Below, one piece after another: positions 10,297 to 62,673 of a stretch of DNA of 64,000 bases. The notes under the pieces are model-generated. The model made no database searches and had not been told where the DNA came from. It saw only the letters and a list, made by a program, of their open reading frames with translations. The translations under genes and the position numbers were made by a program. The stretch is from contig CM000150.2 of the NCBI GenBank assembly GCA_000004695.1, forward strand, positions 1,856,001 to 1,920,000, read 5' to 3'. The stretch's first letter is position 1; every line of letters starts with the position of its first letter. The DNA is from Dictyostelium discoideum (taxonomy: Eukaryota).

Positions 10297-10476
10297 TTAC
10301 TCTTCACTAAAACTTAAAAATTCATCTTCTTCACTTAAACTATAATCATTATCTTCTAAAACAGTATTATCTTCACCCTCTTTATTTATTTTCTTGATTC
10401 TATTACATTCACTCTCACTATAATAATTTTCTTTGTCTTCATGCTCACCCTTGTCACCATCATCTTCATCATCATC

Positions 10477-10521
<45 letters not shown>

Positions 10522-13500
10522 TTCATCCTCGTCTTCGTCTTCGTCCTCATCTTCATCATCATATTCATCTTCAGAATCTGAATGAGGTTGAATTAATCCA
10601 TTTGGATTTAAATAGTCATATTCTTGAATTTGTTGTTCTAAAACACTGATACCTTTGGAATCAATTGAGACCATTGAGTTTATTGAATGAACATATTGAC
10701 AAAATGGACCCCAAGTTCTATCTTTTTTTAAGAGTTTAGAATTACCAATTACAAATAATCCAAATTTAGCTCTTGTGAGTGCGACATTAATACGTCTACG
10801 ATCAGAAAGGAAACCAATTCTTTCGCTTCTTACACACGATAAAATTATGATATCTTTTTCTGAACCTTGAAAACCATCAATTGTTGATGTTTCAATATTT
10901 AATGGATAATTAAACTGTTTATGTTGTTCTTTGATTTCACTCTTTTGTAATTTATATGGCGTAATAATACCAAATGAGAACTTTTTACATTCTGGATAAT
11001 CTTGAACTAACTTTTTAATCAATGTGAATACCATTGTGATTTCTAATTTATTCTTTAATGATCTTTTACCACTTTCTTCTTTTGAATCAATAACATCATA
11101 GAATCTAATTGGACCATATTTGATATCTGAATGGAAATTATGTTGATTGTATACTAATGACTTTACATTATCACCATCTAATAATCTGTCTCTATAGAAT
11201 TGATTTGATGGGAATCTTGAAATTGTTGGATGCATACGATATTGAACATGTAACATTTCAACTGGTAATACTTTTGATAATCTTTCGAATAATGATATAT
11301 TTAAACCATTTTCTGCACTTTCTGTAGAGAAGATAGTTGGTGGTAATTGTAATGGATCACCAACGAGAATTAACTTTTCAATATTACCAATACATAATGG
11401 AATTATTGATGATGGTTCAGTTGATTGAGTTGATTCATCTACTAATATAATATCTGCTCTAAAGTTGTTCTTAACAGTTTCAGAACCACTTCCAGATAGA
11501 GTTGAGAAAACAATGGATGCTCTATAGATACTATCAGATTTCTCACGTTGAGTTTTATTGAAAATTGAAATACTATGACAATCTGGTGATATATTTTCCT
11601 TTTTACCAATACGTACCATATTTGGTAAATAAGGTTTACCATCTAAACCTATTAATTTCTTTTTTGAACATCTCTTTGCAATTTCATCTACTGATGCATG
11701 TGATGGACCACATACTAATATCTTGAATTCTGGATTAATTGCTAATAAAATTGAAAGTAAATAATAAATTGTTGTAGTTTTACCAGTACCTGGTGGACCT
11801 TGAATTAATGTAATACCTTTTGTTGATAATGATGTTTCAATTGAATTAAATTGTGATGTATTCAATTCTTGAATACACATGGATCTCAACAATGATGGAA
11901 TAGCCATTCTCTTTGAGGATAGTATATCGTGGTCTTTTCTTGATGGTTGTAAAATTTGATCAAATAGTATTCCAGAATTTCTAAAATCTTTTATTGCATT
12001 CAACTCTCTAATGAATGTAATGCAATTTGAAACTTTTATAAAGTATAACTTTTCTTTTATAGTATTGGAATCTTTCAAATAGTTTTTATGATTGAATGAA
12101 ATTGAATCAAACATTTCTATTATAGGATCCATTGAATCTGATGAATGAAATTTACATTTTACAATTTGTGTATTCTCTTCTAAATCAACATTTGAACAAT
12201 TGAGTACTAAACCCATTGCAAACATTGGTTCATTGGTATTATCAAATACTTTAAAAAGTAAAACATCATTATAAAATAATTCTTGGGACCCATCATTTAC
12301 ATCAATTTCAAACTTCATAATTGAATAGTCGGATATCTCTTTAAATGAGTGAATTGTTGGTCCATCAATCATCTTAATTTTATCTAAACCTATTAATGTA
12401 CCATCTTTTTCTGATATTGAAACACCTTCAATTTCATCAAATTCACCTGCAAGTTGTTTCCTATATTCCTCCACTATCAAAGGTTTCATTAAATCCATAT
12501 ATTCTTCATGATTTGAGTAACTTGATTTCAAATTTCTAATACTATTCACCTGTATTAATGGAATTCTTTCTGGACTAATCTTTAAAAATATTGATAATAT
12601 TTCGTAAGGACTCTTTAAAAAAACACTAACTAATTCACGAATTAATACAATTTTTAAAAAATTTTCATTATTATTATAATTGTTTTTATTATTATTATTA
12701 TTAAATTTATTATTTGATTTGGTTGTTGTTGTTGTAGTAGTTGTTGGTGTTGTTGTTGGTGTTGGAGTTGGTGTTGATGATGAGTTTATTAAAACCTTTT
12801 CATTTTTAATTAATTGATAAATTTCATTAAATAACAATTTTGAAATTAAGGTTAACCTTTCAGAGTTTAATAATTTAAAAGTTGGAATTTTAATAGCGGA
12901 ACGATTAATTTTTGTTTTAGATTTAAATTTTTTGATAAAACCATCAGAGAATTTACCTCTAATTAAATCTAAAAAGTTTAATTTAGTTTCATTATTTCTC
13001 TCTAATTCTAATTTCAATTGATCTGAATTTATGGGTCTAAAAGTTTTTGTTTTTTCTTTTAACTCTGAAATTTGTGAGAAATGGTTGAATTCTATCATTA
13101 CCATTAATGATAATGATTTTTGATAAATTGAATCAATATTTTCAGTATTTATATTATTTCTTTGAACCATTGAAATATCGTGTATTAATCTAATTTTTAA
13201 AACTTGAATATGCATATTAAATTGATTTTTGTTCTCATCAATTATTTTCTTTACTTGTTCTAATGATGGTTGATAAGATGGATTCAATTTTGATAATGTA
13301 TCCAATTTTCTAAAAATTAAATCTGCACTATTTGAATCTTCAAATATTAAATTTAATAAACTACGTTTCAATGGTTGGTTTATATCAAAAGTGGATGAAC
13401 CACTTTGAGGTGTTGTTGTTGTATGAGTGGTTGCGGTTGTGGTGGTTGTGGTAGGTGAAAGTGAATCTGGTTCAATCACTGATTTAGTTGAGGCAATTTT

Positions 13501-15103
13501 TTGTGGTATTTGTTTTATTGTTGGTTGGGCCTCGTTTGGTTTACCTGGATTTATTGGAGCTGGTAATGACGGTAAAGTTGTTGTTGTAGGAGTGGTTGTG
13601 GTTGTGGTTGTAGTTGTGGTTGTGGTTGTGGTTGTGGTAGGAGAAAGTGAATCCGGTTCAATCACTGATTTAGTTGAGGCAATTGTTTGTGGTATTTGTT
13701 TTATTGTTGGTTGGGCCTCATTTGGTTTACCTGGATTTATTGGAGCTGATAATGATGGTAAACTTGTTGTTGTTGTTGTTGTTGTCGGAGTGGTTGTGGT
13801 GGTGGGTCTTATTGAAGTTGTTGTGTTTGTGGTGGTTATGGTAGGTGAAAGTGAATCGGATCCAATCACTGATTTAGTTGAGGCAACTGTTTGTGGTATT
13901 TGTTTTATTGTTGGCTTGGCTTCATTTGATCTACCTTGATTTATTGGAGCTGAGAATAATGGTAAACTTGTTGCTGTCGTCGACGTTGTTGTTGTTGTTG
14001 TTGTTTTTGTTGTTTTTGGTGCATTTGAATAGATAGTATACTTTTCTGATAAAGATTTTCCTTTTCCTATTAGCTTCATACATTTTTCAAATGATTCACA
14101 AATTTTGATAAAATTTGAATCAATTAAACCATCTAAATACTCTGTAAATCTTAAATCATTGATACGATAATTTTTATTCTTTAAAACTGTTCTAAATTCA
14201 ATTAATTCTTTTTTTAATTTACTTGGAAAAATACATTTTTCAATATCTAAAAACGATATTGGCATTTCAAATTGTACAGAAGTTTCTATTTCAATTCTAC
14301 CTCTAATTTTTTGTATTCTATTTGATGTTAATCTTTTAAAAAAAAAACTAAACTCGATTAAAAAATTTAAATTACTATAATCACTATATAATTGATATAT
14401 ATTTCTTTTAATTATATCATCTTCATCTTCATCTTCACCTTCATCTTCATCTTCATCTTCATCTTTATTATTATTATTATTATTATAATATAATAAATCA
14501 TTTCTTTGAAAAAATGTAGGAAATTTAGAAGAGACATGAATTGAAGCTGTATATTTGACATTGTTGATTTTACGTAATAAAAAGAATTTTGATGAGGATT
14601 TAAGTAATACTTCTTGAATTTTACTTTGAAAAGTTGGAAAATAATTTTCAATATCCTCTAAACTATCTATTAATATTGATGAGTTTATAGTTTCAGTGGT
14701 AATTTGAGGTGTTGGTGATAAATTAATTGTTTCATTTAATTGAGTTAATAATACTCCAAGTTTTGGGTAAAGTGATTTTATATAATTTGAAACTGTTTGA
14801 TTTGGAAGAGGCAATGAGAAATCTGGAATCATATATGATTCTGTTTTATTTGTAGGAGTGAAAATATATGGTTTTGAAATTAAATTTGGATCAAAAGTAC
14901 CAATTTTTTTAAATTTTATTGAAATTCCACTTGATTTTAAATGATTTTTAAAGTCATTTATAGAATTTTTTTTTGAACTTTTTGTTTGTGAAAAATGATT
15001 CTTTAATAAATGTATTTGATAATGTACATTAAATTTTATAATGGTTTGAAATTTGATAAATTTATTAAAAAAATCACTTGATAAAATTAAATGCTCACTA
15101 ACT

Positions 15104-15198
<95 letters not shown>

Positions 15199-15670
15199 TA
15201 AAAAATTATTCTTTATTTCTTTTAATAATTTTTTTTTTAATTTTTCAATCAGAGTAGTAAAAAAATCATCTTCCAAAGCTTCAATTATAAATTCTAGTTG
15301 ATCTACACATGTTGGAAATTGGACTTTTAATTGTTTAATTGTTTCTAATTGTTTTTTGGGGTTATTACATTCTTTAAATATTAATTTTATTAGATTATTA
15401 TTATTATTATCATCATTATTATCATCATTATTATTATTATTATTATTACTATTATTATTACTATTATTATTATTGTTATTATTATTATTAATGGTATTTG
15501 TCGATGATAATTCAGATTGCGTTGGATTTATTAATGACAAAGAAGGTGACAGATTTTTGCTTTCACTAGAAAAATTAAATGAGAGTTAGAAAAATGGCAA
15601 AAAAAAAAAAAAAAAAAAAAAAATATCTAATATCAATATTTTACTCTTCTGTTTTTAAAATAGAACCCAT
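10297..15670 (-). CDS. Giant UPF1/SEN1-like SF1B RNA/DNA helicase, paralog A (about 1764 aa; micro-exon plus one intron; no NTase domain; acidic D/E tail)
   Basis: Exon 1 spans 15670..15645 (ATG GGT TCT ATT TTA AAA ACA GAA GA; donor gtaaaa). The 79-nt intron has acceptor tttttctag (reverse complement of 15566-69). Exon 2 spans 15565..10297 (phase 2 closes as GAT). All helicase motifs are present: I TLIQGPPGTGKTTTIYYL; Ia ILVCGPSHASVDEIA; II ILVDESTQSTEP; III LILVGDPLQLPPTIFS; IV QYRMHPTISRFPSNQFYRDRLLDG; V DGFQGSEKDIIILSCVRS; VI IGFLSDRRRINVALTRAKFGLFVIGN. N-terminal region: four copies of a helical module with an LIEFSNL/LMVMIEFNHFSQ motif, separated by T/P/S-rich linkers including three tandem 57-aa repeats (13440-13990). 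Ends in a poly-D/E tail. Confidence 0.8.
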
Positions 15671-16261: not shown

Positions 16262-16680
16262 TTATAAAAAAAGAGTTAAAATGAGTTTAGGGACATTAGT
16301 TTTAAAAAAAAAAAACGTAGGTAAAATTGGTGGATTTAATGACTGAAGGAAATGAATTACCATATTAACTAAACAGAATGAACTAAATGTTTTCTCTGCT
16401 GCATTATTTAAATCTTTTGAGATTGCCCACCATTTTACTAATAATGCTAAATCTATACATCTATTATCAATTGAACAATATTCACCTAACAATAATGAAT
16501 TGTGATAACTAATCATTGAATTAAAACACATATCGAAATGAATACCTGATGATATCTCTTTGAATCTAATGATTGGTATTTTTGCATCCATTCTTTTTTC
16601 AATTAATTTATATTGTTGAGATCTATTTAAGTATTTATAAACTTGTTTTAAATAAGTTGTATCTTCCTTTTGAATACATG
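16262..16680 (-). pseudogene. Orphan fragment of the Cid1-like nucleotidyltransferase domain (copy of paralog-B region about 17853-18200)
   Basis: Translates (ORF 16262..16591 plus upstream) to ...KEDTTYLKQVYKYLNRSQQYKLIEK..MDAKIPIIRFKEISSGIHFDMCFNSMISYHNSLLLGEYCSIDNRCIDLALLVKWWAISKDLNNAAEKTFSSFCLVNMVIHFLQSLNPPILP, then diverges. No start, no upstream helicase. Confidence 0.75.
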
Positions 16681-16689
16681 AAAATATAT

Positions 16690-16843
16690 CACCAGATTGT
16701 CATCGTATATCTCTTTTTGATAAAACACTAGCACAAAGAAAAGAAATTCTTAAGAATGCAAATATTGTTTTCTCAACATTATCAGCAAGTGGTTCTGGTC
16801 CTGTTAGAAGTAACTTTAAAGCAAATATTGTACATGCACAAGT
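16690..16843 (+). pseudogene. Inverted orphan fragment of the helicase domain (matches the reverse complement of paralog B about 19690-19850: ...PDCHRISLFDKTLAQRKEILKNANIVFSTLSASGSGPVRSNFKANIV)
   Basis: Plus-strand sequence is the reverse complement of the minus-strand helicase coding sequence and is fused directly to the NTase fragment. It breaks off into a degenerate (acaggt..)n stretch at 16850-16930. Confidence 0.7.
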
Positions 16844-17354: not shown

Positions 17355-20300
17355 CTAAGAAAGTAATCCATTTGACGATAATGATAAATTCTCTTTGAAT
17401 AAATCATTAATTGTTGTTTTGGTTGATCTTAAAGAATATTCCATCATTGTGAATTCCATTAATACTCTTTGGTATGTTTTTTTAATTGATGATGCTAAAT
17501 TTCTATCATTAATAAATGGATCAAGTACAATGATATGACCTTTTACTGGTGTACCCTTTATAGTTGATCTTTTTAATAATGCTCCATTTTCACATAAACT
17601 ACCACCACCACTTGAGTGACTAATTGATATGATATTCTCTTTATAATTAAATGTTGAATAATAATAAAAGAATTGATAAAACAATTGAGCGATTGTCAAT
17701 TTGTTTCTTTTTGGTTCAAATTTGTTAAAACTTGACCAATCATAATATTTAACTAAATAATTTTCTACGATTGTTTGTGATTTTAATTTAATTAAATTTC
17801 TATCTGTTGAATACTTTTCTAATAGTTGATTTGATGTTGTTTGTAAATTTGGTAAAATTGGTGGATTTAATGACTGAAGGAAATGAATTACCATATTAAC
17901 TAAACAGAATGAACTAAATGTTTTCTCTGCTGCATTATTTAAATCTTTTGAAACTGCCCACCATTTTACTAATAATGCTAAATCTCTACATCTTTTATCA
18001 ATTGAACAATATTCACCTAACAATAATGAATTGTGATAACTCATCATAGAATGAAAGCACATATCGAAATGAATACCTGATGATATCTCTTTGAATCTAA
18101 TGATTGGTACTTTTGCACTAATTCTTTTTTCAATTAATTTATATAGTTGAGATCTATTTAAATATTTATAAACTTGTTTTAAATGAGTTGTATCTTCTTT
18201 TTGAGTACTTGAGAAATTAATATCTAAATCACTATCATTCAATGATAATCCACTCAAGAATGAACCATATAAATTAATTGATGCTGTTGCGAAACCTTCT
18301 GATATTAATTTCTTTAATCTATTATAACTATCTTGTTTAATTGATTTCTTTTTACATTCAATTTTTGAAATAATTTCATTAAGAGAATTATTTGTTTTTG
18401 ATGATGATAAAGATTGTGAAATTTCTTGTATTTCTAAATTATTTAAAACTTTCTTTAAATATGAATCCAAGAGACGTGAATATTTAACAAAACTATCTCT
18501 TAATGTTTTCTTTTTTGATAAAGTTGATTGATCTATTTTTTCTTGATTTGATTTTTGTAATTCTATAATAATATTAATAAGAGTGTTTGGAAAATCTTTA
18601 TCAATGATTAAATTATTTGAATCTGGTGAAACTGTCTCATCTTCATCATCATCATCGCTGATACTATAATATTCATCATCATCATCATCCAAATCATCAT
18701 TATCTTCACCTTCTTGATTAATTTTCTTGATTCTATTACTTTCATCATCTTCATCATGCTCTTGTATTTCTTCATTATCTTCATCTTCGTCTTCCTCTTC
18801 ATCTTTACCATCATATTCATCTTCAGAATCTGAATGGAATTCAATTAATCCATTTGGATTTAAAGAGTCATATTCTTGAATTTGTTGTTCTAAAACACTG
18901 ATACCTTTAGAATCAATTGAGACCATTGAGTTTATTGAATGAACATATTGACAAAATGGACCCCAAGTTCTATCTTTTTTTAAGAGTTTAGAATTACCAA
19001 TTACAAATAATCCAAATTTAGCTCTTGTGAGTGCGACATTAATACGTCTACGATCAGAAAGGAAACCAATTCTTTCACTTCTTACACATGATAAAATTAT
19101 AATATCTTTTTCTGAGCCTTGAACCCCATCAATTGTTGATGTTTCAATATTTAATGGATAATTAAACTGTTTATGTTGTTCTTTGATTTCACTCTTTTGT
19201 AATTTATATGGCGTAATAATACCAAATGAGAACTTTTTACATTCTGGATAATCTTGAACTAACTTTTTAATCAATGTGAATACCATTGTGATTTCTAATT
19301 TATTCTTTAATGATCTTTTACCACTTTCTTCTTTTGAATCAATAACATCATAGAATCTAATTGGACCATATTTGATATCAGAATGGAAATTATGTTGATT
19401 GTATACTAATGACTTTACATTATCACCATCTAATAATCTGTCTTTATAGAATTGATTTGATGGGAATCTTGAAATTGTTGGATGCATACGATATTGTGTA
19501 TTTAACATTTCAACTGGTAATACTTTTGATAATCTTTCAAATAATGATATATTTAAACCATTTTCTGCACTTCCTGATGAGAAAATAGTTGGTGGTAATT
19601 GTAATGGATCACCAACAAGAATTAACTTTTCAATATTACCAATACATAATGGAATTAGTGAAGCTGGTTCAGATGATTGAGTTGATTCATCTACTAATAC
19701 AATATTTGCTTTAAAGTTACTTCTAACAGAACCAGAACCACTTGCTGAAAGAGTTGAGAAAACAATATTTGCATTTCTAATAATTTCTTTTCTTTGTGCT
19801 GGTGTTTTGTCATAGGGTGATATACGATGACAATCTGGTGATATATTTTGAAGTTTACCAATACGTACCATATTTGGTAAATAAGGTTTACCATCTACAT
19901 TTATTAAACTCTTTTTTAAACATCTCTTTGCAACTTCATCTACTGATGCATGTGATGGACCACATACTAATATCTTGAATTTTGGATTAATTGCTAATAA
20001 AATTGAAAGTAAATAATAAATTGTTGTAGTTTTACCAGTACCTGGTGGACCTTGAATTAATGTAATACCTTTTTTTGATAATGATGTTTCAATTGCATTA
20101 AATTGTGATGCATTCAATTCTTGAATACAAATGGATCTTAACAATGATGGAATCTCCATTCTCATTGATGTCATTAAATTATAAACTTCCAATGATGGTT
20201 GTAAAATTTGATTTAAAAGTGTTTTTGAATTTTTAAACTCTTCTGTTGCTTCTAATTCTCTAATGAATGTAGTACTATTAGAAACCTTTATAAAATGTAA

Positions 20301-23300
20301 AATATCTTTTGAATATCTTTTCGAATTCAATGAAACTGAATAAAACTTTTCAATTAATGGTTTCGTTGAATCCGATAATACAAATTCGCAAATTATTTTT
20401 TGTTTTTTACTTTTTAATTCTGAAGATCTTGTAACTAAACTCAATGCAAACATTGGTTTATTTGTATGATCAAATGCTTTAAAAAGTAAAATATCATTAA
20501 GGTATATTTCCTCTAATTCATCCTTAACTTTAATATTAAATGTAATTTCAACAGAATCCTCCGACAACTCTTGGAATGAATGAATTGTTGGTGTATCATT
20601 CATTTTAACTCTATCTAAACCTATTAATGTACCATCTTGTTCTGATATTGAAATACCTTCAATTTCATCAAAATCACCTTCGAGTTGTGCTCTATATTCT
20701 TCTACTATTAAAGGTTTCATTAAATTTACAAATTCTGATTGGTCAGAATAACTATCTTGTAATGAATGAATATTATCAGCTTGAATTAATGGAATTCTTT
20801 CTGGATTACTCTTTAAAAATATTGACAATATCTCTTCAGAATCTTTTGAAATTACTTCAACATGATCACGAACTAAAACAACTTTTCTATTATTATTATT
20901 GTTATTTCTTGATCTTATTGTAGTTGTTGCAGTTGCTGTTCCTGTTGGGGATTTGATAAACAACTTTTCACTTTTAATTAATTGGTGAATTTCATTAAAT
21001 TGTAACTTTGAAATTAAACCTAACTTTTCAGAGTTTAATAATTTAAAAGATGGAATCTTTAAAGTTGAACCATTGATTTTTGTTGTTGATTCAAAGTTAC
21101 TGACGAGATTATCAAAGAATTTACCTTTAACTATATTTGAAAATTCTAACTTCGTTCTATTTTTTTTTGCTAATTCTGAATTCAACTGATTGTATTTGTG
21201 TCTACAAGTCTTTGTTTTTTCTTTTAATTCTGAATACTGTGAGAAATGATTAAACTCTAATAATACCATTAATGATAATGACTTGTTATATATTTTTTCA
21301 ATATTTTGATTGCTTGTATTATTTTTTTGAATCTTTGAAATATCTGTTTTTAATCTATTTTTAATAGCATTAATAGTTGAATTAAATTGAGTTATACTCT
21401 CATTGATAATATCATTCACTTGTTCAATTGATTTTTTCTTTGATGGATATGATTTAAATAATCTATCCAATGTTTTAATAATTGAATCTGCACTAGTTGA
21501 ATCTTCAAATATTAATTTCAATAAACTATGTTTCAATGATTGGTTTATATCAAATGTAGTAGTAGCAGCACTAGTATTATTAGAAGCAGATGATGCTGTA
21601 GTTGATTTATCTGTTGATGTTGTTGCAGAGGTATTTGCAGTGGTTGAGGTTGTTGTTGTTGTTGTTTTTGTTGTAGCTTTATCTTTTATAATACTAGTGG
21701 TAGTTGAAGCTGTAGGTGTTTTTGAACTTGTTGTATTAGATATTTTTTGTGAATTTGAAAGTGATAAATCTTTATAATCTAATACTAAAGATTTTATATG
21801 AATTATAAAAGATTTTATTAAAGTTCCAATTGTATTATCACTTTCATTTTTATGACCAAGTGGTAATTTAAATAATTCTACATTCATCACATATTCAGTT
21901 TTTTTAGATTTAATATTTAATTTTACTTGTTCTGGAATATAGTTTGAAATGTCTATTGATTTTTGATCAATAAATGCTTCAACTTTAATACAAAATCTTT
22001 GGTGGTGAGTATTCAATAAATTGAATGCCTCTGATCTAGAATCCAAAAAGGTTGGTGAGTTTTTAACTGTGAAATTTTTATCAAAATATTCTTTAATATA
22101 ATTTCTTTGCACTAAATTACTAAATTCAATTAATGAAATGATTGTAAAAATTGTTTCATTAATTTCATTAAATTTTGATGGATTTACACTTGATTTTAAT
22201 AATTTTCTTATATCTTTTGATGTACCAATTCTATAAGATTCAGTCTTTTTTTTGAATGGTAAAACTATGTCTTTTACCATTGATTTAATTGAATCTATTT
22301 GTAAATTAAATGTTGGATATTGATTCTTTAAACTATCAATTGCTTCTGGTTTGTTAAAAAATGTATTAAATAATGAAAATATTTGTTTTTCAATATTTGA
22401 TGGTGTCTTCAAAATTACTGTTGGTATATTTGATAATAATTCTTTTGGTGTTGATGTTGGTGTTGGTGTTGGTGTTGGTGTTGGTGTTGGTGTTGGTGTT
22501 GGTGTTGGTGTTGGTGTTGGTGTTGGTGTTGGTGTTGGAGTTGGAGTTGGAGTTGGAGTTGGTGTTGGTGTTGGTGTTGGTGTTGGTGTTAGTGTTGGTA
22601 TTGGTTGTGTTGTTGTTGTTGAGTTTGATAAAAGTTGATAATCTAAAATTAAAGATTTTATATAAATCAAATGTGATTCGATTAATGTTCCAATGGTATT
22701 ACTTTCGATATTCTTGTGACCAAGTTCTAATTTAAATAAACCAATATTAAATAAAACTTTTTTAGAATCTAATTCTAACTTCAATGGTTTTGGAACAAAT
22801 TTTGAAACAAAAGATGGATTTTGACTAATAAATTCCTCTAGATTGATTTTTGATTTTTGATATTGAGTTTCCAATAAACCAAAAGCCTCTAATTGTAAAC
22901 TTGCTTGGTGTGTGATTTTGACTATATTTTTTTCAATATATTTTTTAACACTACTTCTTTGGATTAGATTACTCAACTCTATTAATGAAATGATTGTAAC
23001 AAATATTGTTACAATTTCATCAAACTTTTTTGAATTTATCTTTGAATTCAATGATTTTTTAAGTTGATTTAATGTTGTAATTTTCACTGAATCAATATTG
23101 GTTTGACTTTCTTTTATAAAAGTTTCAACTGATAATAATTCTGATTTAAAACCTGGGTATTTTTTAATCAAACCTTGAATATCTTCTGATCTGTGGAATA
23201 ATTTATTAAAAATTGAAAAAACTACGATTTCAGTAGTTGTTGGTTTTGTTTGTTGTTGGCTATTTATAACTTTTGATACCAATGATGGTGATGTTGCTAA

Positions 23301-24273
23301 TGGTACTGTTGGTGGTGATACAGTTGTTGTTGTTGTTGCTAATGACACTGCTGGTGGTGTTATATCAATAACTGATGTAGATGATATTTTCTGTTCTATT
23401 GTAGTTGTACCTAAACATTTATTATATAATTTACAAAGGTTGATAAAGTTTGATTGAATTGAAATTGATATATCTTGAGAATCTGAAAATTTTAAATAAT
23501 TTATTTTATAATTTTTACCCTTTAAAATAAATTTGAAATCATTTGAAATTTGACGAAATTTTGATGGATAATTACATTTGAAAACCTCTGATAATGTTAT
23601 TGTTATATTTTGAGCTGACAATTGATCATAAAGCCTTTGTTTTTGATCAGCTGTGATTGATGTATCATCTGTAAATAATTTCTTTAAAATTAATCTTTGA
23701 TATAAAAAACTAAATTCAATCATAATTTTCAATGCTATAAAATCATTATAAATTTGAAAAATATCGTTATTATTATTATTACGATTGATATTATTTAATA
23801 AATTTGTTTTTTTAACTAATTTACTAAATTTATCAGAGACATCTATTGAAGAAGATGTTTTAATAATTCCAATTTTATTCTCTAAAGAAGTTTTATCATT
23901 TTCTAAAATTTCTTTAATTTTCTTAATATCGAAATTTGGAAATAATTTACAAACACCATTAATTCCATTTATGATATCTTTTAAATTACTATGCTTGAAT
24001 ATAGTTTTAAAAATATCATTTTCATTACTATTTATAATTTGTGAATTTTCAGTAATATTCAATTTGTTCATATTATTTATTATTGAATCCATTGTACTAT
24101 TGGTGTTAGTGTTGGTAGTGGTAGTGGTACTGGTGGTGGTAGTGGTACTGGTGGTGCTCGATTCTACAGTTGTTTTTGTTTTTTCTGGTACGCTTTGAGA
24201 AATTGGATTGTTATTATTTGATGAAGGTGGTGGTGGTGGTGGTGGTGAAGTTGATGAATTTGGAATATTTTCC

Positions 24274-25041: not shown

Positions 25042-28000
25042 TTAAGAAAGTAATCCATTTGACGATAATGATAAATTCTCTTTGAATAAATCATTAATTG
25101 TTGATTTGGTTGATCTTAAAGAATATTCCATCATTATGAATTCCATTAATACTCTTTGGTATGTTTTTTTAATTGATGATGCTAAATTTCTATCATTAAT
25201 AAATGGATCAAGTACAATGATATGGTCTCTTACAGCTCTACTCCTTATATTTGATCTTTTTAATAATGCTCCATTTTCACATAAACTACCACCACCACTT
25301 GAGTGACTAATTGATATGATATTCTCTTTATAATTAAATGTTGAATAATAATAAAAGAATTGATAAAACAATTGAGCGATTGTCAATTTGTTTCTTTTTG
25401 GTTCAAATTTGTTAAAACTTGACCAATCATAATATTTAACTAAATAATTTTCTACGATTGTTTGTGATTTTAATTTAATTAAATTTCTATTTGTTGAATA
25501 CTTTTCTAAGAGTTGATTTGATGTTGTTTGTAAATTTGGTAAAATTGGTGGATTTAATGATTGAAGGAAATGGATTACCATATTAACTAAACAGAATGAA
25601 CTAAATGTTTTCTCTGCTGCATTATTTAAATCTTTTGAAACTGCCCACCATTTTACTAATAATACTAAATCTCTACTTCTATTATCGATTGAACAATATT
25701 CGCCTAACAATAATGAATTGTGATAACTCATCATTGAATTAAAACACATATCGAAATGAACACCTGATGATATCTCTTTGAATCTAATGATAGGTACTTT
25801 TGCATCCGTTCTTTTTTCAATTAATTTATATAGTTGAGATCTATTTAAATATTTATAAACTTGTTTTAAATGAGTTGTATCTTCTTTTTGAGTACTTGAG
25901 AAATTAATATCTAAATCACTATCATTCAATGATAATCCACTCAAGAATGAACCATATAAATTAATTGATGCTGTTGCGAAACCTTCTGATATTAATTTCT
26001 TTAATCTATTATAACTATCTTGTTTAATTGATTTCTTTTTACATTCAATTTTTGAAATAATTTCATTAAGAGATTTATTTATATTTGATGAGGATGATGA
26101 TAAAGATTGTGAAATTTCTTGTATTTCTAAATTATTTAAAACTTTCTTTAAATATGGATCCAAGAAACGTGAGTGTTTTATAAAATTATCTCTTAATTTT
26201 TTCTTTTTTGATAAAGTTGATTGATCTATTTTTTCTTGATTTGATTTTTGTAATTCTATAATAATATTAATGAGAGCATTTGGAAAATCTTTATCAATGA
26301 CTAAATTATTTGTATCAAATACTTCTTCATCTTCATCATACTCTTCGCTGATACTATGATATTCTTCATCACCATGCTCATTATCATCATCATCATCATC
26401 CTCCAAATCATCATTATCTTCACCTTCTTGATTAATTTTCTTGATTCTATTACTTTCATCATCTTCATCATGCTCTTGTATTTCTTCATTATCTTCATCT
26501 TCGTCTTCCTCTTCATCTTCACTATCATCATAGTCATCTTCAGAATCTGAATGGAATTCAATTAATCCATTTGGATTTAAAGAGTCATATTCTTGAATTT
26601 GTTGTTCTAAAACACTGATACCTTTAGAATCAATTGAGACCATTGAGTTTATTGAATGAACATATTGGCAAAATGGACCCCAAGTTCTATCTTTTTTTAA
26701 GAGTTTAGAATTACCAATTACAAATAATCCAAATTTAGCTCTTGTGAGTGCGACATTAATACGTCTACGATCAGAAAGGAAACCAATTCTTTCGCTTCTT
26801 ACACACGATAAAATTATGATATCTTTTTCTGAACCTTGAACTCCATCAATTGTTGATGTTTCAATATTTAATGGATAGTTAAACTGTTTATGTTGTTCTT
26901 TGATTTCACTCTTTTGTAATTTGTATGGTGTAATAATACCAAATGAGAACTTTTTACATTCTGGATAATCTTGAACTAACTTTTTAATCAATGTAAATAC
27001 CATTGTGATTTCTAATTTATTCTTTAATGATCTTTTACCACTTTCTTCTTTTGAATCAATAACATCATAGAATCTAATTGGACCATATTTGATATCTGAA
27101 TGGAAATTATGTTGATTGTATACTAATGACTTTACATTATCACCATCTAATAATCTGTCTTTATAGAATTGATTTGATGGGAATCTTGAAATTGTTGGAT
27201 GCATACGATATTGTGTATTTAACATTTCAACAGGTAATACTTTTGATAATCTTTCAAATAATGATATATTTAAACCATTTTTTGCACTTTCTGATGAGAA
27301 AATAGTTGGTGGTAATTGTAATGGATCACCAACAAGAATTAACTTTTCAATATTACCAATACATAATGGAATTAGTGAAGCTGGTTCAGATGATTGAGTT
27401 GATTCATCTACTAATACAATATTTGCTTTAAAGTTACTTCTTATTGGTTTAGAACCACTTGCTGATAGAGTTGCGAAAATAATAGTTGCATTTCTAATAA
27501 TTGCTTTTCTTTGTGCTGGTGTTTTATCAAAAAGTGATATACGATGACAATCTGGTGATATATTTTGAAGTTTACCAATACGTACCATATTTGGTAAATA
27601 AGGTTTACCATCTATATTAACTAAACTCTTTTTCAAACATCTCTTTGCAACTTCATCTACTGATGCATGTGATGGACCACATACTAATATCTTGAATTTT
27701 GGGTTAATTGCTAATAAAATTGAAAGTAAATAATAAATTGTTGTAGTTTTACCAGTACCTGGTGGACCTTGAATTAATGTAATACCTTTTGTTGATAATG
27801 ATGTTTCAACTGCACTAAATTGTGATGTATTCAATTCTTGAATACACATGGATCTCAACAATGATGGAATCTCCATTCTCATTGATGTCATTAAATTATA
27901 AACTTCCAATGATGGTTGTAAAATTTGATTTAAAAGTGTTTTTGAATTTTTAAATATTTCCGGTGCTTCTAATTCTCTAATAAATGTAGTACTATTAGAA

Positions 28001-31000
28001 ACCTTTATAAAATGTAAAATATCTTTTGAAGTTTTCGAATTCAACGAAACTGAATAAAACTTTTCAATTAATGGTTTCGTTGAATCCGATAATACAAATT
28101 CGCAAATAATTATTTGTTTTTTACCCTTTAAAACTGAATTTGATGTTACTAACCCCAATGCAAACATTGGTTTACTAGTATGATCAAATGTTTTAAAAAG
28201 TAAAATATCATTAAGGTATATTTCCTCTAATTCATCCTTAACCTTAATATTAAATTTAATTGCAACCAAATCCTCTGACAACTCTCGGAATGAATGAATT
28301 GTTGGTGTATCATTCATCTTAACTCTATCTAAACCTATTAATGTACCATCTTGCTCTGAAATTGAAACACCTTCAATTTCATTAAAATCACCTTCGAGTT
28401 GTGCTCTATATTCTTCTACTATTAAAGGTTTCATTAAATTTACAAATTCTGATTGGTCAGAATAACTATCTTGTAATGAATGAATATTATCAGCTTGAAT
28501 TAATGGAATTCTTTCTGGACTACTCTTTAAAAATATTGATAATATCTCTTCAGAATCTTTTGAAATTACTTCAACATGATCACGAACTAAAACAACTTTT
28601 CCATTATTATTATTATTATTATTACTATTATTGTTATTTCTTGATCTTATTGTAGTTGTTCCTGTTGAGGAGTTGACAAACAACTTTTCACTTTTAATTA
28701 ATTGATAAATTTCATTAAATTGTAACTTTGAAATTAAACCTAACTTTTCAGAATTTAATAATTTAAAAGATGGAATCTTTAAAGTTGAACCATTGATTTT
28801 TGTTGTTGATTCAAAGTTACTGACGAGATTATCAAAGAATTTACCTTTAACTATATCTGAAAATTCTAATTTCATTTTATTATTTTTTGCTAATTCTGAA
28901 TTCAATTGATTGAGGTATTGTCTACAAGTCTTTGTTTTTTCTCTTAATTCTGAATACTGTGAGAAATGATTAAACTCTAATAATACCATTAATGATAATG
29001 ACTTGTTATATATTTTTTCAATATTTTGATTGCTTGTATTATTTTTTTGAATCTTTGAAAAATCTGTTTTTAATCTATGTTTAATACCATTAATATTTGT
29101 ATTAAATTGAATTTTACTCTCATTGATTATATTCCTAACTTGTTTAATTGATTCTTTGTTATAAGGATGTGATTGTGATAATCTATCCAATGTTTTAATA
29201 ATTGAATCTGCACTATTAGAATCTTCAAATATTAATTTCAATAAACTATGTTTCAATGAATGGTCATTCTCAAATGTTGTAGTAGTATTATTATTAGAAC
29301 TAGGTGATGGTACTATTGATATTTGTGATGTTGTTGTTGGTGATGGTGCTGTTGTTGTAGCTTTATCTTTTATAATACTAATGGTAGCTGAAGCTGTGGG
29401 TGTTGTTGAACTTGTTGTATTAGATATTTTTTGTGAATTTGAAAGTGATAAATCTTTATAATCCAACACTAAAGATTTTATATAAATAATAAAAGATTTT
29501 ATTAAAGTTCCAATTGTATTATCACTTTGATTTTTATGACCAAGTGGTAATTTAAATAACTCTACATTCATCGTATATTCAGTTTTTTTAGATTTAGATT
29601 TAATATTTAATTCTACTTGTTCTGGAATATAGTTTAAAATATCTATTGATTTTTGATCAATAAATGCTTCAACTTTAATACAAAATCTTTGGTGGTGAAT
29701 ATTCAATAAATTGAATGCCTCTAATTTAAAATTCAAAATATCTTGTGAGTTTTCAACTGTGAAATTTTTATCAAAATATTCTTTAATATAATTTCTTTGA
29801 GAAAGATTACTAAATTCAATTAATGAAATGATTGTAAAAATTGTTTCATTAATTTCATTAAACTTTGATGGATTTACACTTGATATTAATAATTCCTGTA
29901 CAGCTTTTGATGTATTGTTTTTATGAAATTCAATCTTTCTTTTGAATAATGAAATTATATCCTTAGTCGCTGATTTAATTAAACCAATTTGTAAATTAAA
30001 TGCTGGATATTGATTCTTTAAACTATCAATTTCCTCTGGTTTATTAAAAAATGTATTAAATAATGAAAATATTTGTTTTTCAATATTTGATGGTTTCTTC
30101 AAAATTACTGTTGGTATATTTGATAATAACTCTTTTGGTGTTGTTGGTGTTGGTGTTGGTATTGGTGTTGGTGTTGGTGTTGATGTTGGTGTTGGAGTTG
30201 GAGTTGATGTTGGTGTTGGTGTTGATGTTGGTGTTGGTGTTGATGTTGACGTTGGAGTTGTGATTGTTGGTGGTGGTACTGGTACTGGTACTGGTTTTAT
30301 TTCTGTTGGTGATGCTGTTGTTGTAGTTGTTGAGTCTGATAAAAGTTGATAATCTAAAATTAAAGATTTTATATAAATCAAATGTGATCCGATTAATTGT
30401 CCAATGGTATTACTATCGTTATTTTTGTGACCAATTTGTAATTTAAATAAATCAATGTTAAATAAAACTTTTTCAGATTTTAATTCTAATTTCGATGGTA
30501 CTGGAACGAAATCTAAAACATTAGATGATATAGTTTGACTAATGAGTTTTTCTAAATCAATTTTTAAACTTTGATGTTGAATTTCTAATAAATTGAAAAG
30601 CGATGGATGTATTCTCTTTGGATTGGGTAAATGTTTTTTAAGAGTAATTCTTTGGTAAAGATTACTAAACTCTATTAATAAAACGATAGTAACTAGTGTA
30701 GTTTTAATTTCTTCAAATTTTATAAAGTTAATCTTTGAATCCAATGATTTTTTAAGTTGATTTAATGTTGTAATTTTCACTGAATCTATGATACTTTGAA
30801 ATGATGTTTGGTTTTCTTTTATAATTGTTTCAACTGATAATAATTCAAATTCAAAGATTGAGTGTTTTTTAATCAAATCTTGAATACCTTCTAATTTGTA
30901 GAAAATTTTATAAAAAATTGAAAAAACTATGATTTCAGTAGTTGTTGGTTCCATTGTGAATATTGTTGATGATGATGATGATTCCACTGTTGGTGATTTT

Positions 31001-32712
31001 GTTGATGATGTTGATGGTTTTGGTAATGCTGTTGGTGATGGTGTTGGTGATGGTTTTGGTAATGCTGTTGATGGTGTTGTTGGTAATGCTGTTGTTGGTA
31101 ATGGTGTTGATGGTTTTGGTAATGGTGTTGGTGATGGTGTTGGTAATGCTGTTGATGCTGATTTTGTTGATGTTGTTGATGGTGTTGGTTTTGTTAATGG
31201 TGTTGATGGTGATTTTGATGCTGTTGTTGTTGATGCTGTTGTCGTTGGTAATGGTGTTGATGATGACTTTGTTGATGGTGTTGGTAATGCTTTTGTTGGT
31301 AATGGTGAAGCTATACCTAAACATTTATTATATAATTTACAAAGGTTGATAAAGTTTGACTGAATTGAAATTGATATATCTTGAGAATCTGAAAATTTTA
31401 AATTTTTTATTCTATAATATTTACCCTTTAAAACAAAATTGAAATCATTTGAAATTTGATGAAAACTAGGTGGGTTATTACATTTGAAAACCTCTGGTAA
31501 TGTTATTGTTCTATTTTGAGCTGACAATTGATCATAAAGTTTTTGTTTTTCATCAGCTGTGATTGATTTATCACCTGTAAACAATTTCTTTAAAATTAAT
31601 CTTTGATATAAAAAACTAAATTCAATCATAACTTTCAATGCTATAAAATCATTGTAAATTTGAAAAATATCATTGTTATTATTATTATTATAATTATTAT
31701 TAGGATTGATATTATTATTATTTAATAAATCTTTTTTTTGAACTAAATTTCTAAATTTATCAGATATTTCTTTTGATGCTATATTTTCAGTATATTCAAT
31801 TTTATTCCCTAAAGAAGTTTGATTGCTTTTTAAAATTTCTTTAATATAATTAATATCAAAACTTGGGAATAATTTAGAAACATAATCAGTTTCATTTATG
31901 ATATCTTTTAAATTACTATGTCTGAATATAGTTTTAAAAATATCAAATTCACCACCACTATTTATAATTTGTGAATTTTTAGTAATATTCAATTGGTTCA
32001 TATTATTTGTTATTGAATCTATTGTTGATGTATTTGTTGTTTTAGTAGTTACACTTTGATAAATTGGAGTTTGTGCTATTGATGTTAATGTTGGTTGTAA
32101 TATTGGTGGTGCCTTTGATGATATTGGTACTGTTGGTGGTGGTGATATTGGTGATACTGTTGAGGGTGTTGCTAATTGTGCTACTGTTGGTGGTAATGGC
32201 ATTGTTGATGGTGGTGATATTGGTACTGTTGGTGGTGATATTGGTACTGTTGGTGGTGATGATGGTGGTGGTGGTAATGGCATTGTTGGTGGTGATGGTG
32301 GTAATGGCATTGTTAGTGGTGGTGGTGGTAATGGCATTGTTGATTTTGATGATATTGGTACTGTTGGTGGTGCTGTTGATTGTGTTGATATAGATGATAC
32401 TGTTGAGGGTGTTGCTACATCTGATGTTGGTGGTGTTGTATAGAAGATGCTGTTGTAGATTGTTGATGTTAATTTTGATAAAAGAGAAAAAGAAAAATAA
32501 GAAAAATAAGAAGAAGAAGAAGTAGAAGGTGGTGGTGATGGTGGTAATGGTGGTGATGGTGGTGATGGTGGTGATGGAATTGATGAATCACTTAAAAATA
32601 AAAAAAGGAAATGGAATTTAGAGAAATTAGTATATAGTGGAGTATTAAAAAATTAAATGACTTATATTTTATAATATTAATATATTTACTCTTCTGTTGT
32701 TAAATAGTTCAT
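25042..32712 (-). CDS. Giant UPF1/SEN1-like helicase fused to a C-terminal Cid1/GLD2-type nucleotidyltransferase domain, paralog C (about 2523 aa)
   Basis: Exon 1 spans 32712..32690 (ATG AAC TAT TTA ACA ACA GAA GA; donor gtaaat). The 99-nt intron has acceptor ttatttttaag (reverse complement of 32591-94). Exon 2 spans 32590..25042; phase 2 is consistent and gives ...TEDDSSIPSPSPSPSPLPP.... The table ORF starts at an internal Met at 32337. P-rich N-terminus (MPLPPPP x3), four helical modules, the full helicase motif set (about 26600-28000), and an intact NTase motif YGSFLSGLSLNDSDLDI plus VHFDMCF and the PAP-associated domain (25042-26200). The last about 1.3 kb plus 100 bp of 3' flank is about 97% identical to paralog B. 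Confidence 0.85.
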
Positions 32713-33431: not shown

Positions 33432-34712
33432 ATGATCAGATCAGCAAGACTCATTTCAAATATTAAATTTGGACAAAAAAATATTAGACAATTCTCAACC
33501 AATACAAATTGGTGGGCAAATGTTCAAAAGGGACCAGAAGATCCAATTTTAGGTGTTAGCATTGCTTACAATAAAGATACCTCACCATCAAAGATCAATT
33601 TAGGTGTTGGTGCATACAGAGATGAAAATGGTAAACCATACGTATTGGATTGCGTAAAGAAAGCAGACAAAAAGATCTATGAAGCCAACGTCGATCACGA
33701 ATACGCACCAATTGTTGGTGTTGCAGCATTCAATCAATTGGCAGCACAATTAGCATTGGGTGAAGAGTGTAAACATATTAAAGAGAAACGTATTGCCACC
33801 GTTCAATCGATTTCAGGTACTGGTGCTTTAAGAATTGCCGCTGATTTCTTTGCCCGTTTCCTCAAGGGTAAAACCGCATACGTACCAAACCCAACATGGG
33901 GTAACCATAATGTTATTTTCAACGATGCAGGCATTCCAGTCAAATCCTACGGTTACTACAATCCAGCCACTTGTGGATTAAACTTTGAAGCCATGACAAA
34001 GGATATCGCTGCCGCTCCAGAGGGTTCAATCATTTTATTACATGCATGTGCTCACAATCCAACCGGTGTCGATCCAACCGCTGAGCAATGGAAAAAGATC
34101 TCTGAAATCTGTAAAGAGCGTGGTCATTTTGTTCTCTTTGATTTCGCTTATCAAGGTTTCGCATCTGGTAGCCCAGAAAAGGATGCTGCCGCTGTCCGTA
34201 TGTTTGTCGAAGATGGTCACAACATTGCTCTCTGTCAATCATTTGCTAAAAACTTTGGTCTCTATGGTGAACGTATTGGTGCTTTCTCCATTCTCACTGA
34301 AACTTCAGATCAAGCTCTCAACGTTGAATCTCAATTAAAGATCTTAATTCGTCCAATGTACTCTAATCCACCAGTTTATGGAGCTCGTCTCGTTCAAGCT
34401 ATCCTCAAAGATAAAGAATTAACCAATGAATGGAGATCCGAAGTTAAAGGTATGGCCGATCGTATCATTAACATGAGAGAACAATTAGTCAAATACCTTA
34501 AAAAACATGGTTCAACTCGTGATTGGTCTCATATTACCACTCAAATTGGTATGTTTTGTTTCACTGGTTTAACTCCAGAACAAGTTGATCGTTTGGCAAA
34601 TGAATATCACATCTATTTAACTCGTAATGGTCGTATCTCAATTGCTGGTATTAATTCAACAAATGTTGAATATCTCGCTAAAGCAATGGCTGCCGTTACA
34701 AAAGATAATTAA
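33432..34712 (+). CDS. Aspartate aminotransferase, mitochondrial (GOT2-type class-I aminotransferase), 426 aa, single exon
   Basis: Full-length ORF with mitochondrial presequence MIRSARLISNIKFGQKNIRQFS. Strong family motifs: LGVGAYRDENGKPYVL; SISGTGALRIAADF; NPTWGNH; HACAHNPTG; the PLP-lysine motif SFAKNFGLYGERIGA; and RPMYSNPP. Codon usage is shifted to C-ending codons, typical of a highly expressed housekeeping gene. Confidence 0.95.
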   Translation: MIRSARLISNIKFGQKNIRQFSTNTNWWANVQKGPEDPILGVSIAYNKDTSPSKINLGVGAYRDENGKPYVLDCVKKADKKIYEANVDHEYAPIVGVAAFNQLAAQLALGEECKHIKEKRIATVQSISGTGALRIAADFFARFLKGKTAYVPNPTWGNHNVIFNDAGIPVKSYGYYNPATCGLNFEAMTKDIAAAPEGSIILLHACAHNPTGVDPTAEQWKKISEICKERGHFVLFDFAYQGFASGSPEKDAAAVRMFVEDGHNIALCQSFAKNFGLYGERIGAFSILTETSDQALNVESQLKILIRPMYSNPPVYGARLVQAILKDKELTNEWRSEVKGMADRIINMREQLVKYLKKHGSTRDWSHITTQIGMFCFTGLTPEQVDRLANEYHIYLTRNGRISIAGINSTNVEYLAKAMAAVTKDN

Positions 34713-34849: not shown

Positions 34850-36315
<1,466 letters not shown>

Positions 36316-46624: not shown

Positions 46625-48275
46625 ACAAATTTATTAATATATTAATAATTAATAATATATAGTCTAGTACACCACCACATTGGTTAGATGAAATGATAGT
46701 TGATTCACAATGGAGATCACTTATATATCAATTATCAGAAGAACATAAGAATTGTTTAATGTTAAATTTCATAATTCAAAGAATATCAGATTCAGGTTAT
46801 CAAAATGAAATTGCATCATTAAGTACTGCCTCAACATACTATAGAGTTTTTAATAAAGTTTTATTCGATTCATTAGCGGATTTAGTAACATTGGATGAAA
46901 TTTCATTTCGTCAACAATTGGATGAATTTAAAAAATCATGTTGTCAACATCAACATACTTATTTATACGCTCAAGCAACAATTCAAAATTTAATTAAAAA
47001 TAATCCTCAAAAAGCTTATAATTTAAAAAGAATTTCTCAAGAATTAGAAATAGAAGCAACTAAAAAGTAAAAAAAAAAAAAAAAATTCAAAATAATATAT
47101 AATTTATTATTATTATAATTACTAACTTTTTTATTTTATTTTATTTTTTTTTTTTTTTAGAAATAAAATTGCACAAAGAATTTCGTTAATGATGTCAAAT
47201 ATATCACAATATCCATTAATATCATCAAGTATAACATCATTGCTAATGAGTAATACAACAACAACAGGTGATATAATTAAATTATATAATGAATATACAA
47301 AAGCTCAACCACCACCAGTCGATTTTTTAAGGTATCCAAATTTATTGGAACTATTATTGAGTGATTTATTTTGTCCTGGTAAAGTCATTCAAAGTGTACA
47401 TAAGAGTAAATGGATTTATTTAGTGACCTATAGTGTTTGTATTAATAGTAGTAGTAGTAGCAATGAGAAAGATAATAATGTATTTAAAGATATTACACGT
47501 GCAATTGAAATAGTTCATAATATTTGTCAATCGAATCCATTAGGTTCAGAATTACAATCAGTTGTTGGTACTCTAAAAGATCATTTAGACTTTCCAATCA
47601 TTTCAATGGGTATAATGCAATGGATTAAACATAATCTTACTGACACTACAAATCTTTCAAGTTATAATACTTTATGTGTACCAATTTATTTAGATTTCTT
47701 AAGAGATGTAAGTTGTTTATTTATTTATTTATTTAAAAAAGTAAATTAATTTATTAACATATTTTTTTGAATAATAAAAATAATAGATTTGTTTAAGACA
47801 TCCATTACATAGATCAGTTGTATTAAATATATTAGTATCACATTTTGAAGTTGAAGCACAAGATTTAGAATCATTGGCAATATTAGAGATGAGAAAGAAT
47901 GTAATTGATAATATAGTTTATTTATTTAGTTGTGGTTATGTTATACCAGTTTTAGATACAATTGAAAGTTGGGCACCAAAAATTGATCCTTCCTTAACTC
48001 GTTACTTTATAAATCAAGTTTTAGATATAATCGAACCACCTTATTCTCAATCATTTATGGATAAAATGAAATCAATCATTAAAATCATTAATCCATTTGG
48101 TGAAAGTACAAAATTGGAACCATCTGTTCAAAGTTTTTTAGATCAATGTAAAAATCAATTAATTTTAAATAATAATAATAATAACAATAATAATAATTTA
48201 TCAACAAAAACTTCAACAAAAAGAAATAATACTGAAATTTATAATAATGAAGATGAAAATGAACAAGTATTTTAA
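45921..48275 (+). CDS. Negative elongation factor C/D (NELF-C/D, TH1-like) homolog (5 exons, about 660 aa)
   Basis: Exons 45921..46280, 46382..46564, 46663..47066, 47161..47707 and 47787..48275, with gtaagt/gtatgt/gtaaaa/gtaagt donors and tttag/tatag/ttttag/taatag acceptors; phases 0, 0, 2, 0. Alignable to human NELFCD throughout: DVITFLSESYRGYAQMCNLLCYWLKIAGIPEE vs [82 protein letters not shown] vs [74 protein letters not shown] vs PPPVELIRVPAFLDLFMQSLFKPG; LFSCGYVIPVLDTI...RYFINQVLDIIEPPYSQSF vs LLSRGYVLPVVSYI...RYFVTEVLDVIAPPYTSDF. The N-terminus carries a Q/H/T-rich extension. Confidence 0.8.

Positions 48276-48997: not shown

Positions 48998-49076
<79 letters not shown>

Positions 49077-61466: not shown

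Positions 61467-61497
<31 letters not shown>

Positions 61498-62642: not shown

Positions 62643-62673
<31 letters not shown>

Follow-up and report, generated by a model that had tools for sequence, protein, structure and literature searches.

What is the segment that is repeated in the N-terminal half of three neighboring helicases of Dictyostelium discoideum, and what might it contribute to these enzymes? The genes lie in a 64-kb stretch of the genome (contig CM000150.2, positions 1,856,001 to 1,920,000; hereafter the window, whose own numbering we use), in which three long open reading frames (ORFs) encoding proteins A, B, and C follow one another head to tail on the minus strand (Table 1). 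An earlier note, made from the sequence alone, had described four modules of about 220 amino acids (aa) in each protein. We found that the modules are copies of one another and that, as judged from sequence comparison, they form a previously undescribed domain family of ~205 aa, defined here, which stands upstream of a Sen1/Upf1-type superfamily 1 (SF1) helicase and, in B and C, a TUT4/Cid1-type nucleotidyltransferase (NTase); the note had placed them upstream of a helicase-NTase half. Literature searches returned no description of these proteins or modules.

The motifs quoted in the note are present in aa 1-1048 of ORF B (window 20949-24092). The pattern [LIVM][LIVM]EF[SN] recurs in B at residues 124, 654, and 944 (with the variant LIELS at ~366), in C at 237, 554, 839, and 1119, and in A at 394 and 815. 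We cut 11 modules from the window (B1-B4, C1-C4, A0, A1, and A4), and these are collinear over ~205 core columns. B and C each contain four in the same order, 203-237 aa in length, but A contains three (A0, A1, and A4), so that the fourfold arrangement does not extend to all three helicases. A profile built from 15 D. purpureum modules only matched B1-B4, C1-C4, A0, and A4 nearly end to end (independent E-value, iE: B1, 2e-29 over hidden Markov model positions 2-204 of 213; B2, 4.2e-13; B3, 6.8e-19; B4, 2e-28; A0, 8.2e-13; others in Table 1). These cross-species matches place the fourfold homology in B and C far beyond chance, and the module copies in general are, on the same profile evidence, homologous to one another. 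A1, which is 33% identical to B1, scored weakly with the D. purpureum-only profile because a poly-asparagine (poly-N)/acidic insertion splits it; a combined profile of all 26 modules (11 from the window and 15 from D. purpureum) matched A1 (iE 3e-23), A0 (4.5e-34), and B1 (2.8e-51), and revealed no further copies elsewhere in the 64-kb window.

Pairwise similarity is strong between B2 and B3 (Smith-Waterman z = 44) and weak in the remaining pairs (z 2-5), but profiles of small module groups compared by hhalign gave P from 1e-5 to 6e-4, and the register did not differ from one comparison to the next. All 26 modules align collinearly, with a common motif order: an h-h-x-x-I-F helix (h, hydrophobic), (Y/F)P, an I-K helix, a central helix with hhEF(N/S)xxYQ(R/K)xxLK, an IPxFKL hairpin, and a C-terminal helix. 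Self-BLAST with the whole N-terminal half returned the identity match alone, and module-by-module comparison was used instead; a homologue search with the 1080-aa N-terminal half yielded one match, rejected as spurious and driven by low-complexity linker words. The span 20300-24100 originally assigned to the modules corresponds to the N-terminal 1264 residues of B and does hold them, but ~215 aa of it are the helicase's own N-terminal region. We rejected B aa ~1075-1320, upstream of the helicase core, as a fifth degenerate module (hhalign P = 0.44 against the module profile).

AlphaFold2 models of B3 (predicted local distance difference test score, pLDDT, 84.5; predicted template modeling score, pTM, 0.83; 11-sequence alignment) and B4 (pLDDT 89.0, pTM 0.88; 18-sequence alignment) agree with the earlier description of the modules as mainly helical, and share the order of their secondary-structure elements: a short N-terminal helix with the near-invariant F of "IF", two helices joined at (Y/F)P, a long helix, a variable loop, a central helix of 32-36 residues that carries the EF(N/S) motif, two or three shorter helices, a beta-hairpin (F-x-F ... 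IPxFKL), and a C-terminal helix. The ~205-aa module is predicted to be a helical bundle round the long central helix, which bears the near-invariant E-F-x4-Q-(R/K), and it appears from the models to fold independently. Across the 26 modules, predicted loops contain indels at about twice the frequency found in secondary-structure elements, and the large poly-N and acidic insertions are located in the loop before the central helix; the bias of indels to predicted loops provides independent, modest support for the models. Three positions are near-invariant (F17, E101, and Q107, B4 numbering), E101 and Q107 being kept in 24-25 of 26 modules that share only ~20% identity. Conservation elsewhere falls on hydrophobic columns and on P38, K66, R108, K112, and K172. 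The 26-module alignment contains no conserved Cys, His, or acidic cluster and no catalytic-type conserved residues; individual modules have 0-4 Cys and 1-9 His, all outside the conserved columns.

No Pfam family was matched by more than one of the 26 modules, and Pfam found nothing in the first ~1300 residues of B. We rejected Med9, Med11, and CHASE3 (Pfam E 1e-3 to 6e-3), each found in a single module and the latter two under the curated cut-off. PDB sequence-profile searches with the modules gave best E-values of 0.43 and 0.81, and the proposed check of an isolated module by AlphaFold and Foldseek gave a best E of 0.54 against PDB, with template modeling (TM) scores ≤ 0.31; the statement that the sequence matches nothing recognized is therefore borne out for both Pfam and PDB. 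The structural likeness to mt-SAF9 (~97 of ~205 residues aligned, 2-6% identity) and to HIP1R THATCH (124-134 residues, 10% identity) is at the level expected of generic long-helix packing, not homology. The note had held that assignment to a common repeat class such as HEAT or TPR would make the modules unremarkable. No HEAT, TPR, or ARM family was found by Pfam in B, C, and A, aa 1-1300, or in the 26 isolated modules, the unit of 203-237 aa with a beta-hairpin differs from a helical hairpin of 30-45 aa, and no solenoid occurs among the structural matches. The suggested likeness to the Sen1 N-terminal domain, the Upf1 CH domain, and ZNFX1 holds for position, but no sequence or structural similarity was found: the conserved module columns lack the Cys/His zinc ligands of the CH domain, and Pfam gave no match to SEN1_N (PF12726) in A, B, and C, although that domain is present in fungal Sen1 proteins homologous to the helicase core. 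HEPN domains are helical and common in RNA-conflict systems. A HEPN-type RNase was rejected in that the conserved helix hhEFxxxxQ(R/K)xxLK has no conserved His at +5 to +7 after R (R-x(4-6)-H expected), and no HEPN family is among the Pfam matches listed for the 26 modules.

A profile search of 1.84 billion representative proteins returned two matches, P0129 (the 1899-aa D. purpureum hypothetical protein DICPUDRAFT_98522 / F0ZR66) and P0130 (a 378-aa D. citrinum fragment). These counts are lower bounds: the D. discoideum proteins and a 2294-aa D. citrinum orthologue were not among the database matches returned, P0129 was likewise not returned in a search whose query held its own modules, and exact look-ups with proteins B and C gave no database match. 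Near-identical sequences thus seem to be missing from the returns, and the family, detected in Dictyostelium alone, has more than two members there. In the D. purpureum locus (L001, Table 1), P0129 (L001 10001-15772), as a separate gene model, has seven modules and no helicase. The gene directly downstream (L001 16514-25772) encodes 3376 aa with eight modules, then a long low-complexity stretch with YVEGFY-type repeats, then the helicase, with the same helicase-specific N-terminal region as in the window proteins. A 90-aa MTPAP-like fragment lies 7.6 kb upstream (L001 2114-2383). The D. citrinum locus (L002) holds a decayed copy with module fragments in several frames, annotated as P0130 (L002 9713-11259), and an intact helicase-NTase ORF of 2318 codons (L002 11845-18798). 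The four modules of the latter are, in order, M1-like, M1-like, M3-like, and M4, a composition that differs from that in D. discoideum, where the second module is M2-like. A protein kinase gene sits where D. discoideum has further copies.

The number and type of modules thus turn over between species (3/4/4 in D. discoideum, M1-M1'-M3-M4 in D. citrinum, and 7 and 8 in D. purpureum). A crude neighbor-joining tree, without support values, pairs M4 with Dp15, M2/M3 with Dp14, and A0 with Dp13, and clusters the other 12 D. purpureum modules species-specifically, except for the outlying Dp4, Dp6, and Dp11. The closest D. purpureum module to B4 is the helicase-proximal Dp15 (28% identity), and the helicase-proximal module type appears, from these comparisons, to have stayed in the same place in both species.

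The modules evolve faster than the catalytic parts. For B versus C, the modules have a ratio of nonsynonymous to synonymous substitution (dN/dS) of 0.55-0.82, compared with 0.25 for the helicase and 0.47 for the NTase; between B and its D. citrinum orthologue, the corresponding values are 0.40-0.55, 0.13, and 0.19. The modules are also kept in frame, constrained, and not decaying, since the 299 nucleotide differences between B and C over 844 module codons include zero stop codons where a neutral simulation expects ~17 (minimum 5 in 2000 runs), and since columns that D. purpureum conserves show proportionally fewer B-C replacements (13.6% vs. 25.1%, P = 5e-4).

All three proteins contain AAA_11 and AAA_12 (DNA2/NAM7-type SF1 helicase; Pfam, E 1e-43 to 1e-59), with the helicase motifs intact (Walker A GPPGTGKT, motif II DEST, and motif VI RRINVALTRAK). 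The nearest solved structures are Sen1 (5mzn, 1e-67) and Upf1 (2xzo, 1e-61), the core also matches ZNFX1, and the best homologues in the protein database are of MAGATAMA3/Sen1 type (~37-46% identity). By these matches the catalytic neighbor of the modules is a Sen1/Upf1-like SF1 helicase. None of its 120 best homologues has a fused NTase. The description of the catalytic half as helicase plus NTase fits B and C but not A, in which a Pfam scan found no NTase domain: MTPAP-like_central, TUTase, and PAP_assoc occur in B and C only. There, GSFLSGLSLNDSDLDI and HFDMCF are present and the G-S...D-x-D motif of NTases is intact (visible in B as GS...DSDLD), and the nearest solved structures are TUT4 (4e-32), followed by URT1, TUT7, GLD2, and Cid1 (PDB), so that by homology the C-terminal domain of B and C is a Cid1/TUTase-type NTase. 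At synonymous sites, B and A differ by 0.11 within the helicase core (18933-20100 vs. 11300-12500) but by 0.44-0.54 in the neighboring M4 and in the stretch upstream of the core. Because divergence is low in the core and high beside it, this pattern suggests that gene conversion homogenizes the helicase core among paralogues while the N-terminal parts diverge.

The linkers had been described as hexanucleotide microsatellites, which holds cleanly for the M2-M3 linkers of B and C alone (Table 1): the M1-M2 linker of C is an imperfect 6/12/51/96-bp array, and the M3-M4 linker of B is T/S-rich, with no repeat detected by Tandem Repeats Finder at a score ≥ 60. The A1-A4 linker (13439-14013, minus strand) comprises three ~62-aa units (…PINPGKPNEAQPTIKQIPQ.IASTKSVIEPDSLSPT…) encoded by a 186-bp tandem repeat (3 copies, 80% matches), whose unit is larger than in the microsatellite linkers of B and C. 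We take the low-complexity T/P/S linkers between modules to be flexible.

What, then, might the modules do? Because they are orphan, confined to close relatives, and fast-evolving, they are probably the target-choosing part of the enzyme. Recognition of cargo or RNA is plausible on indirect grounds: conserved residues of a catalytic kind are absent, a conserved core is accompanied by rapid change at other positions, and copy number turns over. The fuller explanation that we tentatively prefer, as the best available but short of probable, is that they are noncatalytic ligand-binding units that select the ribonucleoproteins (RNPs) or partners of the helicase and are tuned by module turnover. Several modules used together, joined as beads on a string by the low-complexity linkers, would select RNA-protein particles or partner proteins, the ligand being more probably a protein or RNP than naked RNA. 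By analogy with Sen1 and Upf1, the helicase would translocate on the bound RNA in the 5′→3′ direction, clearing it, after which the tethered NTase would add a tail to the 3′ end so exposed. In other organisms, 3′-end tailing marks RNA for decay. Module gain, loss, and swapping would retune specificity. The nearest functional analogies may be the N-terminal accessory domains of Upf1, Sen1, and ZNFX1, or the adaptor subunits of TRAMP or MOV10-TUT4/7. Several points weigh against this proposal. Module net charge ranges from -10 to +14, so that neither a common nucleic-acid ligand nor a common protein ligand is obvious; a dN/dS that stays below 1 throughout is as compatible with weak constraint as with diversifying selection; the models were built on shallow alignments (11 and 18 sequences), and AlphaFold can be overconfident on helical proteins; and the structural comparison covered PDB, beyond which a structural relative may exist.

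It is doubtful that the modules instead bind nucleic acid directly, gripping the substrate RNA and feeding the helicase like the accessory domains of some SF1 helicases. They do adjoin an RNA helicase and an RNA-tailing enzyme, 19 of the 26 are basic (isoelectric point, pI, 8.1-9.7), and K66, R108, K112, and K172 are four of the few conserved polar positions, but the other seven range from near neutral to acidic, with a net charge as low as -10, a basic pI is uninformative given that Dictyostelium proteins are generally K- and N-rich, no known RNA-binding fold was matched, and the most invariant residues are E and Q. The beads-on-a-string layout with its long low-complexity linkers, the tolerance of variable copy number, the high dN/dS, and the existence of a module-only protein in D. 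purpureum would suit modules that lack a specific ligand and instead serve as bulky spacers, as units of self-association, or as scaffolds of condensates, governing how large the enzyme is, how it oligomerizes, or where it resides. We consider this unlikely, as the near-invariant polar positions of the central helix (E101 and Q107) suggest more than filler, and the helicase-proximal type appears position-stable in the crude tree. Regulation of the helicase in cis by an auto-inhibitory clamp that a partner releases, as with the Upf1 CH domain, would be in keeping with the placement of the modules, which, like that domain, lie N-terminal to a Upf1-like core; it is improbable when long low-complexity linkers separate the modules from the core and from each other, when the modules of P0129 stand without any helicase, when CH-type Cys/His zinc ligands are lacking, and when 3-8 copies are hard to square with a single clamp. 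That the region is unremarkable, either a missed HEAT/TPR/ARM solenoid or decaying sequence in young duplicates, as a dN/dS of up to 0.82 (B vs. C) and the known decayed copies (an NTase relic at 16262-16744 and the broken D. citrinum copy) might suggest, is very improbable, and this ordinary-repeat or junk reading is essentially excluded by the lack of any matched Pfam repeat family, a ~205-aa unit with a beta-hairpin in place of a short helical hairpin, structural matches free of solenoids, zero stops against ~17 under neutrality, preferential conservation of the core, and retention of the domain since the D. purpureum split.

Further features of the locus concern the gene models and their surroundings. 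The long ORF of A has no ATG near its start and ends in an acidic tail at 10297; a candidate first exon of 26 nt (ATG at 15670-15668, end at 15645) would be joined to it in frame across a putative 79-nt GT...AG intron (15566-15644). Unlike B, protein C is extended at its N terminus by ~100 proline-rich residues (MPLPPPP…TVPISPP…; 32038-32337, minus strand), encoded by imperfect 21-57 bp repeats (repeats at 32116-32391). Between genes B and A lies the truncated NTase relic (minus strand), 81% identical to B aa 1944-2083 and containing a 109-aa ORF (16262-16591) that starts MDAKIPIIRFKEISSGIHFDMCF; it is probably a remnant of another, lost copy in the gene family. The G+C content of the window is 15-32%. 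An ORF at 33432-34709 on the plus strand is identical at every residue to the mitochondrial aspartate aminotransferase of D. discoideum AX4 (XP_646849.1). Other neighboring ORFs resemble ordinary cellular genes, Mak10/NAA35 (a NatC subunit) being split over two ORFs that are probably exons, and no sign of a mobile element was seen among the neighboring ORFs around the helicase cluster.

Table 1. Coordinates of the modules, catalytic domains, linkers, and neighboring genes in the window, and of the related loci in two other species (iE, independent E-value with the D. purpureum-only profile)
Feature	Position	Strand	Details
Protein A	10297-15540	-	long ORF, 1747 aa
Protein B	17355-24092	-	long ORF, 2245 aa
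Protein C	25042-32337	-	long ORF, 2431 aa
Module B1	23409-24092	-	aa 1-228; M1 type; motif DIFQIYNDFIALKIMIEFSFLYQR
Module B2	22623-23240	-	aa 285-490; M2/3 type; LIELSNLIQR, LFKLELGHKN
Module B3	21759-22400	-	aa 565-778; M2/3 type
Module B4	20949-21557	-	aa 846-1048; M4 type; nearest helicase; LMVLLEFNHFSQYSELKEKTK
Module C1	31315-32025	-	aa 105-341; iE 9.2e-24
Module C2	30334-30951	-	aa 463-668; iE 4.4e-15
Module C3	29440-30090	-	aa 750-966; iE 3.6e-14
Module C4	28672-29277	-	aa 1021-1222; iE 4e-28
Module A0	14731-15399	-	aa 48-270; poly-N insertion in loop before central helix
Module A1	14065-14694	-	aa 283-492; M1 type; acidic/poly-N insertion
Module A4	12784-13395	-	aa 716-919; M4 type; iE 3.9e-28
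B helicase-specific N-terminal region and SF1 Sen1/Upf1-like core	18933-20885	-	aa 1070-1720; Pfam AAA_11, AAA_12; not a module
B Cid1/TUTase-type NTase	17358-18452	-	aa 1881-2245; Pfam MTPAP-like_central, TUTase, PAP_assoc
Hexanucleotide microsatellite, B2-B3 linker	22445-22621	-	TTGGTG x29.5 on plus strand; encodes (TP)n
Hexanucleotide microsatellite, C M2-M3 linker	30142-30260		
Hemerythrin-domain protein	2322-4328	-	neighboring ORF
Cyclin	35354-36040	-	neighboring ORF
TH1/NELF-C/D fragment	47189-47749	+	neighboring ORF
Purple acid phosphatase	48782-50824	+	neighboring ORF
PAP2 phosphatase	54741-55457	+	neighboring ORF
Mak10/NAA35	60941-63356	+	neighboring ORF
D. purpureum locus (L001)	GL871136.1:10875-36646		15 modules
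D. citrinum locus (L002)	JBTAPL010000041.1:2638910-2660171		syntenic; beside aminotransferase gene

The modules and their enzymes recall known systems. The Upf1 CH domain, the Sen1 N-terminal domain (SEN1_N), and the N-terminal region of ZNFX1 likewise precede a Sen1/Upf1-type helicase core, and these regions recruit partners or regulate the motor. The CH domain is a zinc-binding Cys/His domain and SEN1_N a long helical-repeat domain, whereas the D. discoideum proteins and their relatives have 3-8 tandem units, each a helix bundle plus hairpin, on low-complexity linkers, without conserved Cys/His and without sequence or structural similarity to those domains. In TRAMP (Trf4/5-Air1/2-Mtr4), and in MOV10 with TUT4/TUT7, an RNA helicase and a Cid1-family NTase mark RNAs for decay; the same pairing is found in B and C, but with both activities on one polypeptide. 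TRAMP uses the superfamily 2 helicase Mtr4 and zinc-knuckle adaptors, and the adaptor role, as proposed here, would fall to the new domain. HELZ2 is an interferon-induced fusion of a Upf1-like helicase with an RNB exoribonuclease and has been linked to defense (PMC10516660). This animal protein likewise has a Upf1-like helicase in one chain with an enzyme acting on RNA 3′ ends, but its effector is an exonuclease, not an NTase, and it is not known to have a comparable N-terminal domain array.

An extension of our preferred explanation, target selection by module arrays, is that the arrays form the variable part of a system of RNA surveillance or defense in amoebae and determine its specificity, for example against retrotransposon or viral RNPs. 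We regard this as a long shot. Each divergent module would recognize a different or changing target, the helicase and tailing half would be the constant effector, and the repeat-encoded linkers, microsatellites included, would be recombination sites for module duplication, loss, and swapping between tandem paralogues. Such arrays would be a nonsolenoid counterpart, by analogy, of NLR-type variable recognition arrays (LRR, ankyrin, and TPR), which likewise combine a conserved NTPase/effector half with repeated recognition units whose number and sequence vary between paralogues and species, and whose genes form tandem clusters that include decayed copies. The units here, however, do not form a continuous solenoid but are large individual domains strung on linkers, and positive selection is not demonstrated (dN/dS < 1).

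Lineage-specific orphan domains are common in Dictyostelium, and were the modules mere spacers, they would be one more such domain, of local interest. What is new here is an orphan domain joined to a helicase-TUTase-like fusion, a variant on a known enzyme architecture, and this fusion, together with birth-and-death evolution, makes a defense or surveillance role worth testing. If the modules do choose targets, then target selection, RNA unwinding, and 3′-end tailing, which other eukaryotes spread over complexes such as TRAMP and MOV10-TUT4/7, would be united in one chain, and the selecting part would be a new fold that varies in number and type between close species. This would add a new domain family to the catalogues, provide a tractable model organism for how RNA-tailing surveillance enzymes choose their substrates, and open the question of whether social amoebae run a fast-evolving RNA-based defense.

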